A DNA stretch of 64,000 nt, from the NCBI GenBank assembly GCA_041491005.1, contig JBGPUE010000005.1, positions 1,165-65,164 on the forward strand, written 5' to 3'. The DNA is from Candidatus Binataceae bacterium. Its GTDB lineage: Bacteria; Desulfobacterota; Binatia; Binatales; Binataceae. This document shows, piece by piece, positions 179-57,056 of this stretch. The translations under genes were made by a program, and so were the position numbers. Below the pieces are notes generated by a model. That model saw nothing but the letters and a program-made list of their open reading frames with translations. It was not told the origin of the DNA and made no database searches. Positions within the stretch are counted from its first letter, which is position 1; the number at the start of each line of letters is the position of its first letter.

Positions 179-2295
179 TTACGGAGCTGACGGTGTGAAC
201 CTCAGCGACCAGCCCGCGACATGCGCGGTCCCGCCAGTATTCGCGGATTCCACCGACACCAAGTCGCCGTCGCTGAAAGTCAGCGAATCGATCGGGTCGG
301 TGCAGGTCGGGTCCGTCGTACCCGTTACAGTGCAGGTCAAGGTGCTGCTCGAACACGCGGTAGTCGCCGTGCCTTTGCAGACCGTGAACACGTACTGCTT
401 GGGGGCCGTTCCTGCAGTGCCGTTCATGAACACTCGGAAATGGTCTGCACTACCGGCGGGCATAGGGGCGCCCACTAATGCGGTTCCGGTCGTAACGGTT
501 GATTGATTCACGACTACACCGTTACCGGGGCCCATCCAGTCAATCTTTGTGCCCGCGCCGCTCGACAGCACCACGCCGTTCGAACCGCCGTGCAGGTACG
601 TCACACCCGCTCCCGCAGGACCCGTAGCGCCAGTGGCGCCCGTGGTGCCCGTCGTGCCGGGATTGCCTTGGAGACCCTGGATACCCTGCGCGCCCGCAGC
701 GCCCGTCGCGCCCGTCGTGCCAGTCGTACCGGTATCGCCCTTCAGACCCTGCGCTCCGGCGGCGCCCGTCGCGCCAGCGGCACCGACAGCACCGGTCGCA
801 CCCGTCGCGCCTGCGGCACCGACAGCACCGGTCGCACCGGCGTCGCCCTTGTCACCCTTCGCGCCTACCGCACCATCGGCGCCAGCAGGACCAGTCGCTC
901 CCGCCGCGCCCACGGCGCCAGTCGCGCCAGCATCACCCTTCGCACCGGCTGCTCCGGCAGGACCTTCAGCACCCGCCGCGCCTACTGCGCCAGTCGCGCC
1001 AGTATCACCCTTCGCACCGGCAGGACCTTCGGCACCCGCCGCGCCGGTATCGCCTTTAGCACCAGCTGCTCCGGCAGGACCTTCCGCACCGGCTGCGCCA
1101 GTGTCGCCCTTTGCACCGGCTGCTCCGGCAGGACCTTCCGCACCGGCTGCGCCAGTATCGCCCTTTGCACCGGCTGCTCCGGCAAGACCTTCCGCACCGG
1201 CTGCGCCAGTATCACCCTTCGCACCGGCGGGACCTTCGGCACCGGCCGCGCCAGTATCGCCTTTAGCACCAGCTGCTCCGGCAGGACCTTCGGCACCCGC
1301 CGCGCCAGTGTCGCCCTTTGCACCGGCTGCTCCGGCAGGACCTTCCGCACCGGCTGCGCCAGTATCACCTTTCGCACCGGCTGCTCCGGCAAGACCTTCC
1401 GCACCGGCTGCGCCAGTATCACCTTTCGCACCGGTTGCTCCGGCAGAACCTTCGGCTCCGGCAGGTCCGGCAGGGCCTTCAGCACCAGTCGCGCCTACAG
1501 CGCCACTCGCGCCGGTATCGCCTTTCGCACCGGTTGCTCCGGCAGGACCTTCGGTACCCGCCGCGCCACTATCGCCCTTCGCACCGGCTGCACCGGCAGG
1601 ACCTTCAGCTCCGGCAGGCCCGGCAGGGCCTTCGGCGCCAGTTGCGCCAGCCGCGCCGTTATCACCTTTCGAACCCGCAGGTCCGGCAGGACCCTCGGCT
1701 CCGGCGACTCCGGCAGGACCCGTCGCGCCAGCAGCGCCAGCTGCGCCGTTATCGCCCTTGGCACCGGCCGCGCCATCAGCGCCAGCAGGTCCGGCGGCAC
1801 CAGCCGGTCCAGTCAACCCAATCGGCCCGGTTGCGCCAGCGGATCCCTCAGGACCAGCGGCGCCCGTAGGCCCGGCAGATCCGGTGAGCCCGATTGGCCC
1901 TGTTGCACCGGCGGACCCAGTCGGCCCTGCGGTGCCCGCGTCACCCTTCGGTCCCGCAGTCCCGGCAGGTCCGGTAGATCCTGCTGGTCCCGTCGCGCCG
2001 GATGGCCCTTGGGCTCCCATCGGACCCGACGGTCCGCTCAGACCGAGCAGGCCCTGCAACCCTTGGGGTCCATTAGGCCCCATAGGTCCGCCAGGGCCCA
2101 TCGGACCCATGGGCCCGAGAATGTCCCAGCTCATCTTTGTTTCTGTGTTCTTACAGATCGTGGTCGCCGAAACGATGCGGTCGGCACCCGTCGTCTTGAC
2201 AACGCAAGCGTAGACGGTGTTCGAAGCAGCGGAAGCCGCCTTCGACGTTAACCCCATGCTTGCGGCGATCGCGAAGGCCAACAGCCATCGCATCG
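179..2295 (-). CDS. Secreted collagen-like triple-helix repeat protein: signal peptide, ~165 Gly-X-Y triplets, C-terminal ~200-aa non-collagenous globular domain
   Basis: The 179..2377 ORF translates to uninterrupted GxY repeats ([22 protein letters not shown]..., [19 protein letters not shown] units). An internal Met ([23 protein letters not shown]) gives a signal peptide, so the start is placed at 2295. The three long plus-strand ORFs over the same DNA are antisense artefacts of the GC-rich repeat. Confidence 0.75.
930..1490. repeat. Tandem ~54-nt (18-aa) repeat array inside the collagen-like gene
   Basis: About ten near-identical [18 protein letters not shown] units are visible at protein and nucleotide level (e.g. 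ggcaccggctgctccggcaggaccttccgcaccggctgcgccagt...). Confidence 0.6.
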
Positions 2296-2377
2296 AATTG
2301 CTCACAGTTGATCGCACTTTCGTATCCTCCCCGAGGCTCAAAGGCCCCAAATCTGTTCGCTGAGCGTGCTGTCTCAT

Positions 2378-23548: not shown

Positions 23549-23947
23549 ATGACAACCGCTGAGCAGAAAGAACGCGCGCTGGGTTTCCTGCGCGCCCTGG
23601 AGAAGGCTGACTCGAAGGCGATGGGCGAAGTCCTCGCCGATGACTTCGAATTCGAGATGATGGGAAAGTTACCCGGCATCTCACCGGTGCGCGGCAAGCA
23701 GGCCTTTGTCGAAAACATCGGCAAGACCATTCGGGGGATGTTCCCTAACGGACTGAACATGACGTTCTCGACCGTCATCGCCGACGGCCCGCATGTCGCG
23801 ATTCAGGCCGCGTCAGACACGGTCGCCGGCAACGGCAAGAAGTACGCGAATCGCTATCACTTCTATTTCCTGTTCAAGGGCGACAAGATCGCACAGGTGC
23901 GCGAGTACAACGACGTCAACCACGTCCGCGAAGTCTTCATGAGCTAG
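23549..23947 (+). CDS. SnoaL-like / NTF2-fold protein
   Basis: It is 132 aa with an NTF2-like pattern (LRALEKADSKAMGEVLADDFEFEM ... YHFYFLFKGDKIAQVREY). Confidence 0.65.
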   Translation: MTTAEQKERALGFLRALEKADSKAMGEVLADDFEFEMMGKLPGISPVRGKQAFVENIGKTIRGMFPNGLNMTFSTVIADGPHVAIQAASDTVAGNGKKYANRYHFYFLFKGDKIAQVREYNDVNHVREVFMS

Positions 23948-24002: not shown

Positions 24003-24060
24003 ACCCTCACCCTGACCCTCGCCCGCTCTTTTGCGGGAGAGGGACAGGGTGAGGGTTCTG
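24003..24060. repeat. REP-like palindromic element (ACCCTCACCCTGACCCTCGCCCGC-tcttttg-CGGGAGAGGGACAGGGTGAGGGT)
   Basis: The hairpin was read directly. It shares the GGGAGAGGG..GGGTGAGGG module with the repeats at 29409-29452 and 29689-29735. Confidence 0.55.
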
Positions 24061-28546: not shown

Positions 28547-29368
28547 ATGACGGATTACAGCAGCTACGAATGCATCAGGATCGAAAAGTCCAACAAGCTC
28601 GCGACCGTGACGCTCAATCGCCCCGACTCGCTCAACGCGGTCAACGGCCAGCTCCATCACGAGCTCGAGCACATCTGGTTGGACCTCGCCGACGATCGCG
28701 AGGTCAACGCGATCCTGCTGACGGGCGCGGGCAAGGCATTTTGCGCAGGCGGCGACGTCAAGGGGATGGCATCGCGCTCGGGCGGGGGCTCCAGCGGCGG
28801 CGGAGACGGGCGTTTGGGCACGCTTGCGACCCCGGCGGCGGGACGGCGCATGATACAAAACATGCTCGAAGTCGAGCAGCCGATCATCGGCGCGATCAAT
28901 GGCGACGCGGTCGGACTGGGCGCGACGATCGCGCTGCTGTGCGATGTGATCGTCGCATCGGAGACCGCGCGCTTCGGCGACACTCACGTCAAGGTGGGAA
29001 TCGTGGCGGGCGACGGTGGCGCGGTGATCTGGCCGCTGCTGATCGGGCCGGCGCGGGCCAAGGAATTCCTGATGCGCGGGAATCTTATCAATGGCGCGGA
29101 GGGCGCAAAGATCGGCCTCGTGAACTACGCGGTGCCGCGCGAGCAGGTGATGGCGAAGGCGACCGAGATCGCGCGCGAGCTGGCCGACGGTGCGACCTGG
29201 GCGATCCGATGGACCAAGCTATCGGTCAACAAGTGGCTCAAGCAGCAGGTCAACCTGATCCTCGATGCGTCGCTCGGCTATGAGATGGTGACGTTCAACA
29301 CCGAGGACCATCGCGAGGCCGCGCGAGCATTCGTGGAGAAGCGCAAGCCCAACTTCCAGGGCCGCTAG
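28547..29368 (+). CDS. Enoyl-CoA hydratase/isomerase family protein
   Basis: The start MTDYSSYECIRIEKSNKLATVTLNRPDSLNAVNG is preceded by RBS ggaggtg. It also has AFCAGGDVKGM and GAINGDAVGLGATIALLCD. Confidence 0.8.
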   Translation: MTDYSSYECIRIEKSNKLATVTLNRPDSLNAVNGQLHHELEHIWLDLADDREVNAILLTGAGKAFCAGGDVKGMASRSGGGSSGGGDGRLGTLATPAAGRRMIQNMLEVEQPIIGAINGDAVGLGATIALLCDVIVASETARFGDTHVKVGIVAGDGGAVIWPLLIGPARAKEFLMRGNLINGAEGAKIGLVNYAVPREQVMAKATEIARELADGATWAIRWTKLSVNKWLKQQVNLILDASLGYEMVTFNTEDHREAARAFVEKRKPNFQGR

Positions 29369-29404
29369 CCAGAGTTTCCCCGGCACTGCGCTTTCAGGGG
29401 AGGC

Positions 29405-29735
29405 TGTTCTTACCCCCTCTCCCTGATCAGGGAGAGGATTGGAGTGAGGATGAGACGACTCAGGTCGCCGGGATTCCTCGCTGCGCCGACTCCGCTCGGA
29501 ATGACAGCAATGCTGGATGGGCCGCCCGTGTCATTGCGCGCGGCTCAGCTCGGCATCACAGCAGTACTGGACCACTCAGCGATGTCATTCCGAGCGGAGT
29601 CGGCGCAGCGAGGAATCCCGGTCTGAATTCACCTACTCAGCGAGCAATCCCCGATCAGTGCTGAGCGACCGCGGGCCTCTCCTACCCCTCTCCCTGACCG
29701 GGGAGAGGGTTGGGGTGAGGGTTCCTAGTCCCGAA
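29405..29735. repeat. Composite repeat: two direct copies of the REP-like module (29409-29452, 29689-29735) flanking a foldback element with perfect 36-40 bp inverted repeats (arms 29467-29506 and 29583-29622, 76-bp spacer); MITE-like
   Basis: IR-L ggattcctcgctgcgccgactccgctcggaatgaca and IR-R tgtcattccgagcggagtcggcgcagcgaggaatcc are exact reverse complements. The flanking direct repeats are ccctctccctgatcagggagaggattggagtgagga and ccctctccctgaccggggagagggttggggtgagggt. Confidence 0.55.
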
Positions 29736-53567: not shown

Positions 53568-56500
53568 GTGACGGCGAGCCGAATCGGAACCACGCGAACA
53601 GTCGGAGCATTGCTGTTTACATTTCTGCTCGCTATGGCCTTCGTCGCGGGCGAAGCGCTGCGCGCAGTCTCAGCGCAGAACCCCACCCAGATTGAGAATG
53701 CGCGCCCCGGGACGACGGACTGGGATCTTGGCAATGCCGCCACCAATAAGGAGATTTCAGGCTACGCGTCGCTGGCCAGCGTCAATCGCGGCGGGCAGAT
53801 CAAGCTCTACGTCCGCACGACCGCTCCCAGCTACACGATCGATATCTTTCGCGCCGGTTGGTATGCGGGTCTTGGCGGCCGTCATGTCTTCGGTCCCATC
53901 GCAAAGACCAGCGTAACCCAGATCATCCCGACTCCGGATCCGACCACCGGATACCTCGAATGCAATTGGTCCGATCCGTACGTCTTGACCACCACCAATC
54001 CGAGCGATTCGACTGACTGGCCCAGCGGAATCTATCTGGCCAAGCTCACCGCCTCGACCGGGAAGCAGAGCTACATCGTGTTCGTCGTGCGCGACGACTC
54101 GCGCACTTCCGACGTCCTGTTTCAGTCGAGCGTCAGCACATACCAAGCATACAACGCGTGGGGCGGAAAGTCGCTCTACGATTACAACAGCAACGGCGGC
54201 GTCCCGGCGATCAAAGTCTCCTACAATCGTCCCTACGACGACGGCAATGGCTCTGGCCAGTTCCTGAGCTACGAGTTCAATACTCTCGGCTTTCTCGAGC
54301 AGCAGGGTTACGACGTCAGCTACACGACCAACATCGAGACCCACAACAACGTGCTGTCTCTGTTCGGCCACAAGGCGTTCCTATCCACCGGGCACGATGA
54401 GTACTACTCCTACGAGATGCGCACGAATGTCACGTTCGCGCGTGACTCCGGAATCCCCATCGCGTTCCTCGGCGCAAATGTCTGCTACTGGCAAATTCGG
54501 CTCGAGGCGAGCCCGCTAACCGGCGACCTCTACCGTACCGAGGTCTGCTACAAGGACCTGTGGCCGCAGGACCCGATGGCGGCCAATCCGTCGACCTACT
54601 ACCTGATCACGGGGCGCTGGCGCGACACTCATCTCACCCGAGCTGGTCAGCCCGAAGACGCGCTGGTCGGCGTGATGTACAACGAGTTTCAGCCGGTCGA
54701 CGCCGACCTCGTGATCGCAAACGCTTCGCATTGGCTCTTCAACGGCACCGGACTTACCAACGGCTCGCACCTGACCAAACTACTCGGCTACGAGGCGGAC
54801 CGGATCTACGGCAACGCGCCGTCCAATATCGTCGACCTTGCGCATTCCACCTATCAGCTCAGCGGAACTCAGGTCTCCGACATGACCATCTACACCGCGC
54901 CCAGCGGTGCATTGGTGTTCGCGACCGGATCGCATGAATGGGCCGACGGGCTCAGCAACGTCAGTCCATGGAGCGCGAGTCCATCGCGTGTGAACGCGGC
55001 GGCTCAGCAGGTCACGCGCAATCTGCTGAACCAGTTCCTGAGCACGTCGGCGACACCGACAGCTTCGGCGAGCACCACGGCTACGCCGAGCGCGACGGCG
55101 ACCGCAACCGCTACATCCACCGCTACCGCAAGCGTTACTGCGACAGCGACCGCTACGCCCACCGCAACATCGACGGCTACAGCGACAGCCACCGCCACCG
55201 GCTCGGCGGTTGCGACGCCGACACCTACCGCGACGCTTACGGCGACTGCGACCGCAACAGCCACCGCGACCGCTACGCCTACTTCGACGCCTGGGCCGCC
55301 CGGCGTTATCGCGCTGCGCGGCATAGGCACCGGTAGCACTTCAACTGGCAGTGACCACGTGACGATTACGGTGCCAACCGGAGTGCAGGCAGGTGACGTC
55401 ATGATCGCCCAAGTCGCGGTGCGCGGCGGGACCAGCACCACGATCACGCTCCCTGCAGGATGGGCTCTGGTACGGCGCGACAACTCCGCGGGTACGATCG
55501 CACAGGGCGTCTACCAGCATCTGGTGCCGGCGTCTCCAGCCGAGCCCGCTTCGTACACGTTCAACTTCACCTCGGGCAATGACGCCGCCGGTGGTATCGC
55601 GGCCTACAGCGGCGTCGATACGGTGGTGATCGTCGATGCCAGTGGCGGACAAGGCAACGCCAGCTCGACGGCGGTCACCGCGCCTTCGATCACTGTGCCG
55701 GCCGGACACAACGCTGACCGGGTGCTCGGGTTGTTCACGGTGCCCAACGGCAACACGATCACTGTCCCTGCGGGGACCACGCAGCGCTGGAGTTTCCGCG
55801 CGATCGGGTTCGGGATCGGAATCGCGATGTCGGATGTTGCGCTGAGTAGCAGCGGTCCGACCGGCAATCTGGTTGCGACGGCGGCCACTGCAGGAGCGAA
55901 TATCGGCCAACAGGTTGCGTTGGTGCCGGCGGCGGCCGCGAGTACGTCTACCCCAACGTCGACCTCGACGCCTACGGCGACTCCGACCAATACGCCGACT
56001 GCCACGGCTACCGCGACAGCGACGCCGACGGCTACCGCGACGGCGACTCCGACCAGTACGCCGACTGCCACGGCTACCGCTACCGCCACAGCGACGCCGA
56101 CGGCAACATCAACGGCGACGGCAACGGCCTCCCCGACGGCGACATCGACCGTCACGCCGACGGCGACACCGACCGTCACGCCGACTGCGACGGCCACCGC
56201 CACTGTGACGCCAACCGCTACCGCGACGGCGACACCCACCGCGACGGCAACTGCAACCGCTACCGCGACGGCGACACCCACCGCGACGGCAACTGCAACG
56301 CTTACCGCAACTGCTACCGCGACGCCGACGGTAGTGCCAACTCCGACCGCGACGCCAACGGCGACCCTAACCGTGACGCCGACTGCTACAACCACGCCGA
56401 CACCGTCAGCGACTCCGACCGCTGGCGCCATCACATTGCGCAACGTAGGCACGGGCAGCACGTCCGCGGTGAGTGATCACGTGACCGTCAACGTGCCAGC

Positions 56501-57056
56501 CGGCGTGCAGCCCGGCGACGCAATGATTGCGCAGATCGCCGTGCGCGGTGGAACCGGCACGACCATCACGACGCCGGCGGGATGGACCCTTGTGCTTCGA
56601 ACAGACAGAGCGGGCAACATCGGGCAGGCTGTCTACCGGCGCATAGTGCCGGCGTCACCAGCCGAGCCTGCGACCTATACATGGAACTTTACCGCGGGTA
56701 ACGATGCCGCGGGTGGTATCGCAGCCTACAGCGGCGTCAGCCAAGTCACGCCTGTCGACGCCAGCGGCGGCCAGGGGAACGCGAGCTCAACCAGCATCAC
56801 GTCGCCGTCCATCACGGTCCCGGCGGGCCATACGGCCGATAAGCTGCTGGGATTGTTCACCGTGACGACCAACGCCATCACCGTTCCGGCGGGCACGACG
56901 CAGCGATGGAGTTTCCATGCGGTCGGCTTCGGAATTACGGTCGCGATGTCTGACAAGCCGCTGACTGTGGCTGGCGCGACGGGGACACTGGTCGCGGTCG
57001 CGGGAACAACTGGCGCGAACGTCGGTCAGCAAGTCGCGCTAACCCCGGGTCCATAG
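53568..57056 (+). CDS. Large secreted protein (1162 aa): N-terminal ~470-aa globular domain (possibly DmfA2-like), then two tandem copies of a ~215-aa domain each preceded by a Thr/Ala/Pro-rich linker
   Basis: It has a GTG start with a signal peptide ([26 protein letters not shown]). The N-domain has [16 protein letters not shown] and [13 protein letters not shown]. Copy 1 ([43 protein letters not shown]...) and copy 2 ([43 protein letters not shown]...) are ~75% identical. Confidence 0.7.
55055..55305. repeat. Low-complexity (ACN GCN)-type tandem repeats encoding Thr/Ala/Pro linker 1
   Basis: It encodes [52 protein letters not shown]... The nucleotide-level periodicity is visible (acggcgaccgcaaccgctaca...). 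Confidence 0.6.
55925..56430. repeat. Low-complexity tandem repeats encoding Thr/Ala/Pro linker 2 (~170 aa)
   Basis: It encodes [93 protein letters not shown]... There are many near-identical 6-18 nt units. Confidence 0.6.

Follow-up and report, generated by a model that had tools for sequence, protein, structure and literature searches.

A long, perfect inverted repeat between two convergent genes of Candidatus Binataceae bacterium (Bacteria; Desulfobacterota; Binatia; assembly GCA_041491005.1, contig JBGPUE010000005.1) raises the question of what kind of element this repeat is. We analyzed computationally a 64,000-nucleotide stretch of this contig (positions 1,165 to 65,164 of the forward strand; hereinafter, the window), in which the repeat, here called the foldback, lies between the genes for an enoyl-CoA hydratase (crotonase) and an APH-family kinase. 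The original prediction described the foldback as an element of recent origin resembling a MITE (a miniature transposable element with inverted repeats). The evidence presented below points to a different answer, namely, that the foldback is probably a head-to-head homodimer of an SRM/NTS-like repeat of the 'CGTC-tagged REP' (repetitive extragenic palindrome) type, located at a site that in sister strains holds a cassette with an ssn-like gene for a small GIY-YIG nuclease.

The foldback arms and a hairpin repeat found in many phyla

A repeat search of the window delineated two arms of 39 nt each, complementary at 39 of 39 positions and separated by 76 nt (Table 1); the originally proposed 36-nt arms thus extend by 1 and 3 nt, and the proposed spacer length stands. 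The gap that houses the foldback extends from the stop of the crotonase gene (29368) to the stop codon of the kinase gene (29725-29727) and measures 356 bp, close to the 360 bp given before. Further copies of the arm, proposed as a check on mobility, did not turn up: with up to 3 mismatches allowed, the arm is present at these two sites only in 64 kb (0 of 100 shuffles produced a match), and an exact 35-mer of the arm has 0 matches in a metagenome collection, which does not include the source contig itself. No target-site duplication adjoins the arms, and a full-text literature search with the exact arm sequences gave nothing relevant. The spacer contains degenerate tag-plus-head remnants (Table 1), with a 2-mismatch match at 29529-29542.

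Each arm is one unit of an oriented repeat that can be written as (T/C)GTC-AT-YSY-GA-GC...GC-GA-RSR-AT-C. In this unit, an unpaired (T/C)GTC tag precedes a stem that starts with AT and continues with three covarying pairs, a conserved tandem G.A/A.G and two G-C pairs, followed by a variable top, the returning strand and, finally, a C. A scan of species-representative genomes for GTCATTCCGAGCG-N6-14-GCGAGGAATCC detected at least 119 loci; the phyla and groups among the matches listed are Acidobacteriota, Chloroflexota, Thermoanaerobaculia, Binatia, Patescibacteria, Nitrospinota, Verrucomicrobia and Bacteroidota, and in other phyla there are many loci per genome among these matches. Pairing in the lower stem is supported by covariation: in a set selected without a pairing requirement and consisting of instances whose three variable stem positions depart from the consensus, 28 of the 41 non-consensus triplets are fully paired, against about 5% expected by chance. 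The pair counts in alignment A2 (columns 8-10/32-34) are not used as evidence because A2 had been filtered for pairing, which makes these counts circular. Positions G3, T4, C5, A6 and T7 do not vary among 48 family members, which had been chosen by a GTCAT pattern.

A covariance model of the unit, R1, recognizes only the two arms within the window, at 49 bits each. The next match, at 23733-23765 on the minus strand (ACGTCATGTT-N13-AACATCCCCC; 12.5 bits, E = 0.57), is weak and could be a degenerate SRM-like unit or a chance occurrence. In Binataceae relatives, including a 75%-related contig, the same model finds several matches in 21 kb in nearby intergenic DNA of L227 and L228, and none in L223 and L226.

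The units are found mostly singly, and also as dimers in both orientations. Chloroflexota are rich in tail-to-tail dimers with 20-34-nt spacers and no open reading frame (ORF); in head-to-head dimers, the spacers measure 60-90 nt. The foldback belongs to the head-to-head type, as a homodimer in which the tags point inward, and other head-to-head dimers carry spacers unrelated to that of the window. The whole 154-nt foldback is not a dispersed unit; what is dispersed is the single hairpin.

Two further arrangements of the units were observed. In low-GC metagenome contigs (L123-L218; for example, L132, 3344-3454, and L176, 7584-7695), a head-to-head dimer with a long, perfect central hairpin sits within a repeat of roughly 300 bp that ends in ~25-bp terminal inverted repeats (ATGAGTATCGGTTATCAATAATAAT...); 30 copies of this repeat have differing outer flanks, so it is apparently a true multi-copy, MITE-like carrier of SRM units. 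Elsewhere, whole or partial hairpin units form tandem arrays (L151, about 1000-1447; L143, 1857-1948; L205; L154/L175), including, in L151, a unit encoding PVIPSAARNLPLQDK that is repeated ~8 times just downstream of a GIY-YIG gene. Such arrays suggest repeated local duplication at the tag.

Alleles with and without a GIY-YIG gene

Four assemblies (L219-L222, including GCA_041497715.1 and GCA_041498995.1) encode a kinase 97% identical to that of the window. In L219-L221, the gap between the kinase and hydratase genes contains a gene for a 98-aa GIY-YIG protein (PF01541 only); in L222, the contig ends inside this ORF. The order in these relatives is foldback copy 1, GIY-YIG gene, a duplicated junction 'gtaggtgaattcagac' and foldback copy 2, with the spacer of copy 1 being the reverse complement of the spacer of copy 2; L219 retains the window-type spacer, in both orientations. 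A plus-strand unit 7 nt ahead of the ATG and a minus-strand unit 32 nt beyond the stop directly bracket the GIY-YIG gene. When the window is aligned pairwise with L219, the flanking genes are 95.7-97.8% identical and a single large difference stands out: the window lacks 489 bp of L219 (1380-1868), which hold the remainder of foldback copy 1, the ssn-like gene (98 aa) and the duplicated junction. This segment is bounded by direct repeats of ~54 nt, each consisting of the duplicated junction and the arm, and the exact breakpoint is ambiguous within the direct repeat. The degenerate third unit next to the right arm (29621..29652), together with that arm, is present twice in the relatives as a direct repeat, as judged by eye.

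These alignments bear on the proposal that the perfect identity of the arms implies a recent origin. The foldback is orthologous in the relatives, and in L219 each arm pair differs at 3 positions (by eye), perfect arms being present in the window only. Accordingly, the perfection of the arms in the window is no mark of recent insertion and is better explained by homogenisation or by the deletion event.

The association of the hairpin units with GIY-YIG genes extends beyond the Binataceae. With the L219 protein as the jackhmmer query, 16 distinct GIY-YIG ORFs were identified among all ORFs of the fetched loci; they come from Binataceae, Doudnabacteria, Paludibacteraceae and metagenome contigs without an assignment. 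The loci other than L219 had been fetched via the motif, and the members of each of the pairs L122/L198 and L156/L217 seem to be a single locus recovered from different samples. In most cases, a plus-strand unit lies 7-150 nt upstream of the start of the ORF, and, again in most cases, a minus-strand unit lies at the stop or at most 50 nt beyond it, the stop often being the TGA inside GAATGAC. In several phyla, the GIY-YIG gene lies directly between two hairpin units in tail-to-tail orientation. The encoded proteins are single-domain, ~95-110 aa long, with GIY-YIG (UPF0213/Slx1-like) as the only Pfam match; they are 38-58% identical to the L219 protein, the GIY-YIG residues are invariant, and their relatives in the PDB, 1ZG2 and 1YWL, both belong to UPF0213.

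In a second sample, picked by protein rather than by motif and consisting of GIY homologs on viral contigs, GTCA-tagged hairpins were present within 300 nt of 22 of 24 close homologs and of only 3 of 22 homologs of the distant, phage type. None of these viral-contig loci contains the strict G.A motif; the hairpins there are of the canonical CGTC/NTS type. At two loci, L242 and L243, the flanks consist of CGTCATTCCCGCGAAGGCGGGAATCCAG, an exact match to the Neisseria NTS consensus, and the inverted partner of this sequence, and the encoded protein is 47-48% identical to the Binataceae protein. In a rough neighbor-joining tree, the proteins linked to canonical hairpins are nested among those linked to G.A hairpins, and the phage-type proteins that lack hairpins fall outside; we read this tree as suggesting membership in the same family and nothing further. 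Given that close relatives keep the GIY-YIG gene at the exact site of the foldback, the foldback is seen as a divergent member of a known system rather than an element of a new kind.

Clustering of the ORFs of at least 110 aa in the 119 listed loci, a weak test with a cut-off that hid the GIY-YIG genes, detected no recurrent transposase; the clusters consisted of housekeeping families and PDDEXK_5 in four syntenic acidobacterial loci. In the latter (Acidobacteriaceae; L010, L014, L070 and L084), an ORF for a small PD-(D/E)XK endonuclease adjoins a hairpin, which probably reflects synteny rather than a second partner enzyme.

A classical MITE, that is, a deletion derivative of an insertion sequence with a DDE transposase, inserted between the two genes and bounded by 39-bp terminal inverted repeats, would account for the perfection of the repeats, the small size and the intergenic position of the foldback. 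Nevertheless, we consider such an origin very improbable: besides the lack of a target-site duplication and of a recurrent transposase in the 119 listed loci, the arms belong to an oriented hairpin family with mostly single units and with dimers in both orientations, the partner gene at the orthologous site encodes a 98-aa GIY-YIG protein, the exact arm was not found in the metagenome collection, and the whole unit was seen at this locus only. What holds of the comparison with MITEs is the existence of a dispersed repeat family tied to a selfish-looking cassette that shows presence/absence polymorphism between near-identical strains. What does not hold is the mechanism and the boundaries, with no target-site duplication and with each arm being a hairpin unit in itself.

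Relationship to the Ssn system and to CGTC-tagged REPs

The link between GIY-YIG genes and hairpin repeats is already published. Chenal et al. (Nat Commun 2025; PMC11893778) described the Neisseria NTS repeats (CGTCATTCCCGCGMAVGCGGGAATCYRG) and their divergent relatives, denoted SRM, which flank the gene for SsnA, a 94-aa single-domain GIY-YIG protein (CDD cd10448). SsnA binds the hairpin solely as single-stranded DNA (ssDNA) and cuts a few nt 5' of it; cutting is governed by the three bases before the palindrome and binding by the C after it, which is the most critical base for binding (PMC11893778). The system modulates natural transformation, its published role being restriction of transforming ssDNA; the NTS-ssnA-NTS layout was likened to an insertion sequence, and binding and cleavage of ssDNA hairpins have been demonstrated for the Neisseria and Wolbachia enzymes only (PMC11893778).

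The repeat described here resembles this system in several respects. It is an oriented hairpin whose palindrome has a GTC tag on its 5' side and is immediately followed by a C: in both arms of the foldback, TGTC directly precedes ATTCC on the sense strand, in agreement with the (H)GTC tag of SRM, and GGAAT is followed by the trailing C, in a column that is at least 90% C in alignment A2. The repeats surround a single-domain GIY-YIG gene of ~94-100 aa in a hairpin-gene-hairpin arrangement, which was found at L219-L221 and at most of the 15 other variant loci, not in the window itself, and they are dispersed and clustered in intergenic DNA. In contrast to the NTS and SRM repeats, the conserved tandem G.A breaks up the stem of the arm, and the top varies (3-17 nt) and is longer. 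The host, too, is different, the window coming from Binataceae and the variant occurring mainly in Acidobacteriota, Chloroflexota, Binatia, Patescibacteria and Bacteroidota; furthermore, the window allele has lost, or is without, the ssn gene.

The comparison with the CGTC-tagged REPs of Di Nocera, De Gregorio and Rocco (BMC Genomics 2013; PMC3733652), which include dRS3 of Neisseria and RPE-4/6 of Rickettsia, is similarly mixed. These repeats have a CGTC or TGTC tag, stems starting with AT and a 3-nt tail, are located between convergent or unidirectional genes, mostly as head-to-head dimers in which the spacer is 20-100 bp long, and were found to have no transposase association (PMC3733652). 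The arm shares with them the unpaired TGTC tag, a stem starting with A-T and T-A and a short, C-rich 3-nt tail, and the foldback as a whole shares the head-to-head dimeric organization, with its 76-nt spacer, and the location between convergent genes. The stem, however, is of a different make, 5 bp, G.A/A.G and 2 bp with a 13-nt unpaired or irregular top, as opposed to perfect stems of 8-9 bp with 4-5-nt loops, and the tail is CCC rather than CCA. In addition, no enzyme was associated with the CGTC-tagged REPs in PMC3733652, in contrast to the GIY-YIG partner identified here and by Chenal et al.

Another well-characterized system of this general kind is REPIN-RAYT (Bertels and Rainey 2011; Nunvar 2010; Ton-Hoang 2012), in which small intergenic hairpin repeats, often inverted doublets, likewise flank the gene of a nuclease that recognizes the repeat as ssDNA; in that system, the tag is GTAG and the enzyme is an HUH Y1 transposase, not a GIY-YIG protein. 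The foldback could, in principle, be a REPIN mobilised by a RAYT, as is the case with GTAG-tagged REPs, given that it is an inverted doublet of REP-like hairpins, with a spacer in the 20-100-bp range of REP dimers, between convergent genes. The TGTC tag, the GIY-YIG gene as the one that recurs between the hairpins, and the published lack of transposase association of CGTC REPs (PMC3733652) make this hardly credible, and no RAYT was seen here, nor does a Y1 or other transposase recur in the weak ORF clustering test described above.

Several observations weigh against the assignment of the foldback to the Ssn/SRM system. Used as a regular expression, the published pattern of SRM, HGTCWYN(0-2)YYVSBRHN(0-5)WNVSBRGN(0-2)RNCYNB, fails to match the arm; this pattern matches the flanks of L242, L243, L235 and L247 and none of the G.A-variant loci checked, hence the designation of the repeat as a divergent variant. 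With standard DNA parameters, the single-arm DNA hairpin is weak (-4.8 kcal/mol, z = +1.5), compared with -8.9 kcal/mol and z = -4.6 for a canonical NTS folded in the same way. Tandem sheared G.A pairs are more stable than standard energy models credit; because the folding energy is weak, the case for the small hairpin is made by covariation, along with this stability. Within the 64 kb of the window, the repeat occurs at one locus only and there is no ssn gene, so that a cognate enzyme in this genome is putative; the place of the Binataceae protein in the SsnA clade (cd10448) is putative as well, being derived from the 47-48% identity and the rough tree. Finally, the short allele could in principle represent an assembly collapse at the repeats, which we consider unlikely.

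Could the foldback act primarily as RNA? The original prediction that it could form a large hairpin if transcribed is borne out by folding: the 171-nt unit has a predicted energy of -122 kcal/mol as RNA (z = -12.9), with the 76-nt spacer alone folding in an ordinary manner (z about 0). Read-through from the convergent ORFs would then yield a 39-bp double-stranded stem that might serve as a bidirectional 3'-end barrier or as an RNase III site, and many REPs have been argued to be transcribed (PMC3733652). That RNA is the main level of action is, however, improbable. Neither the window nor any of 18 related loci has an Rfam match at the gathering score, and at the E-value level the locus gives only spurious matches to plant miRNA long hairpins, far below the gathering scores; the foldback has no U-tract, and a promoter and terminator scan found nothing on it, the sole terminator-like match lying upstream, at 29390-29404. 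Moreover, Nm SsnA does not bind RNA (PMC11893778), and what is conserved is an oriented tag and hairpin tied to the gene of a DNA nuclease. A side effect of RNA folding on the convergent transcripts may nonetheless exist.

If the foldback is a divergent Ssn/SRM-type dimer, as we favor, its behavior can be outlined by analogy with SsnA and NTS of Neisseria. When the DNA is single-stranded, during replication, transformation or conjugation, the tag-bearing strand of each arm would fold into a small hairpin, and a cognate Ssn would bind it via the palindrome and the following C and cut a few nt 5' of the GTC tag. Given the head-to-head layout, the predicted cuts, on either strand, fall within the 76-nt spacer. 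The window allele most likely arose when recombination or slippage between the ~54-nt direct repeats took out the gene along with one copy of the foldback, and the perfect 39-nt complementarity probably stems from that deletion or from conversion within the foldback. A possible side effect is that perfect arms could pair with each other, hiding the individual hairpins.

A more radical scenario is that the locus bears the footprint of an active element similar to an insertion sequence, with a mobile hairpin-ssn-hairpin cassette in which the GIY-YIG ssDNA nuclease would act as the transposase or homing enzyme; the window allele would then be an empty or excised site or a non-autonomous derivative still mobilisable by the enzyme. 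The presence or absence of the cassette among strains with 96-98% identical flanks counts in favor of this scenario, as does the tail-to-tail arrangement of hairpins around the ORF, which places the predicted cuts at both outer boundaries. The same can be said of the abundance, in Chloroflexota, of ORF-less tail-to-tail doublets with 20-34-nt spacers, and of the repeat of roughly 300 bp, bounded by terminal inverted repeats, that bears the dimer at many different loci; an insertion-sequence-like architecture was remarked on also by Chenal et al. (PMC11893778). On the other hand, with direct repeats of ~54 nt bounding the indel, ordinary recombination or slippage suffices to explain the polymorphism. 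There is no target-site duplication, the exact element was found at no second locus, neither the cassette nor the arm occurs elsewhere in the 64 kb, and transposition has been shown for no Ssn, the published role of which is in the restriction of transforming ssDNA. We therefore regard this scenario as unlikely, and equally doubtful is its strong form, in which the cassette would represent a new mechanistic class of mobile elements, with a 98-aa GIY-YIG ssDNA nuclease as the sole enzyme and the ORF-less doublets as non-autonomous derivatives. If this were true, the 489-bp polymorphism would be a natural snapshot of gain or excision, and the G.A hairpin would represent a separate specificity class spanning Acidobacteriota, Chloroflexota, Binatia, the Candidate Phyla Radiation (CPR) and Bacteroidota.

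Genomic context of the foldback and its significance

The foldback is surrounded by two 36-nt direct repeats that are 89% identical. The original prediction of REP-like direct repeats in these positions was correct. They are not part of the element: the flanking hairpins belong to a different family and lie outside the foldback. The right copy was also said to overlap the kinase stop codon; it ends at 29720, 4 nt short, and abuts the stop. In the relatives, both hairpins occupy the same positions beside the gene stops, whether the cassette is present or absent, and hence are not target-site duplications of the foldback. Members of this family have the form CCCTCTCCC-loop-GGGAGAGGG followed by TTGGGGTGAGGG, with no T-tract after it, and a longer palindromic relative is located at 24003-24056, downstream of another gene. 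These hairpins look like gene-end hairpins or another REP-like family.

Table 1. Features of the foldback locus (window coordinates)
Feature	Position	Strand	Basis or details
Enoyl-CoA hydratase (crotonase) gene	28547..29368	+	ORF list; called as a gene, with Pfam ECH_1, on contig L120 (identical)
Separate hairpin family, copy 1, by the crotonase stop	29414..29449	+	CCCCTCTCCC-TGATCA-GGGAGAGG+ATTGGAGTGAGG
Left arm, one SRM-type hairpin unit	29468..29506	-	Perfect inverted repeat; R1 match; minus-strand order: TGTC tag, ATTCC, GA, GCG, 11-nt top, GCG, AG, GGAAT, CCCGG
R1 covariance match, left arm	29468-29507	-	49.4 bits, E about 1e-9
Dimer spacer, 76 nt	29507..29582	.	Sequence
Degenerate tag-plus-head remnant in spacer	29530-29540	+	GTCATTGCGCG
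Degenerate tag-plus-head remnant in spacer	29549-29559		CTCGGCATCAC; minus-strand reading GTGATGCCGAG
R1 covariance match, right arm	29582-29621	+	49.3 bits, E about 1e-9
Right arm, same SRM-type hairpin unit as left arm	29583..29621	+	Perfect inverted repeat; R1 match
Alignment junction against L219, 489 bp absent between these bases	29596..29597	.	Pairwise alignment
Degenerate third unit adjoining the right arm	29621..29652	+	GTCTGAATTCACCTACTCAGCGAGCAATCC; by-eye reading of window and relatives
Separate hairpin family, copy 2, ends 4 nt from the kinase stop codon	29685..29720	+	
APH-family kinase gene, 364 aa	29725..30819	-	Gene call; query for orthologous loci

An acyl-CoA dehydrogenase of the window has an exact counterpart on a single database contig, L120 (JGI metagenome sample 3300053057); this contig stops at the equivalent of window position ~40738, so that the window, which continues to 64000, derives from a longer assembly. 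Among named organisms, the kinase has its nearest relatives in Candidatus Binataceae, contrary to an alphaproteobacterial (Bradyrhizobium-like) origin. In more distant Binataceae (L223-L228; kinase 74-77% identical), the region downstream of the kinase gene lacks the hydratase gene and is a variable hotspot, containing toxin-antitoxin modules (PemK/RHH, BrnT/BrnA), DUF29, or DUF433/DUF4926. Two other repeat-rich regions of the window are parts of long ORFs. A 732-aa ORF (179-2377, minus strand) encodes a collagen-like protein with long Gly-X-Y repeats and a signal-like N-terminus, and is the origin of the 9-nt periodic DNA repeats at 600-1750. A 1162-aa ORF (53568-57056, plus strand) encodes a protein in which a domain is duplicated internally and two linker tracts of Pro/Thr/Ala are long; the DNA repeats within it lie at 55048-55293 and 55909-56430, with a 300-nt duplication at 55269 / 56391.

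The foldback is a divergent variant of an already described system, and in this sense the value of the finding is modest. At a practical level, the repeats account for spurious short ORFs and for peptide signatures such as IPRFARND and VIPSEARN, which is relevant for genome annotation. The description of the pairing of Ssn with SRM dates from 2025, and its role is known so far from Neisseria. The published pattern misses the class of hairpins with a tandem G.A and a long top, although small GIY-YIG genes of the same kind accompany these hairpins, in phyla made up largely of uncultured bacteria from soil and sediment, so that pattern-based surveys may undercount the system. These hairpins also offer a candidate for a new specificity of ssDNA cleavage, which would add to the toolbox that Chenal et al. 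proposed. Finally, two naturally occurring alleles, one carrying the nuclease gene and one lacking it, in flanks that are 96-98% identical, open to test the question of whether this cassette is domesticated or still mobile.

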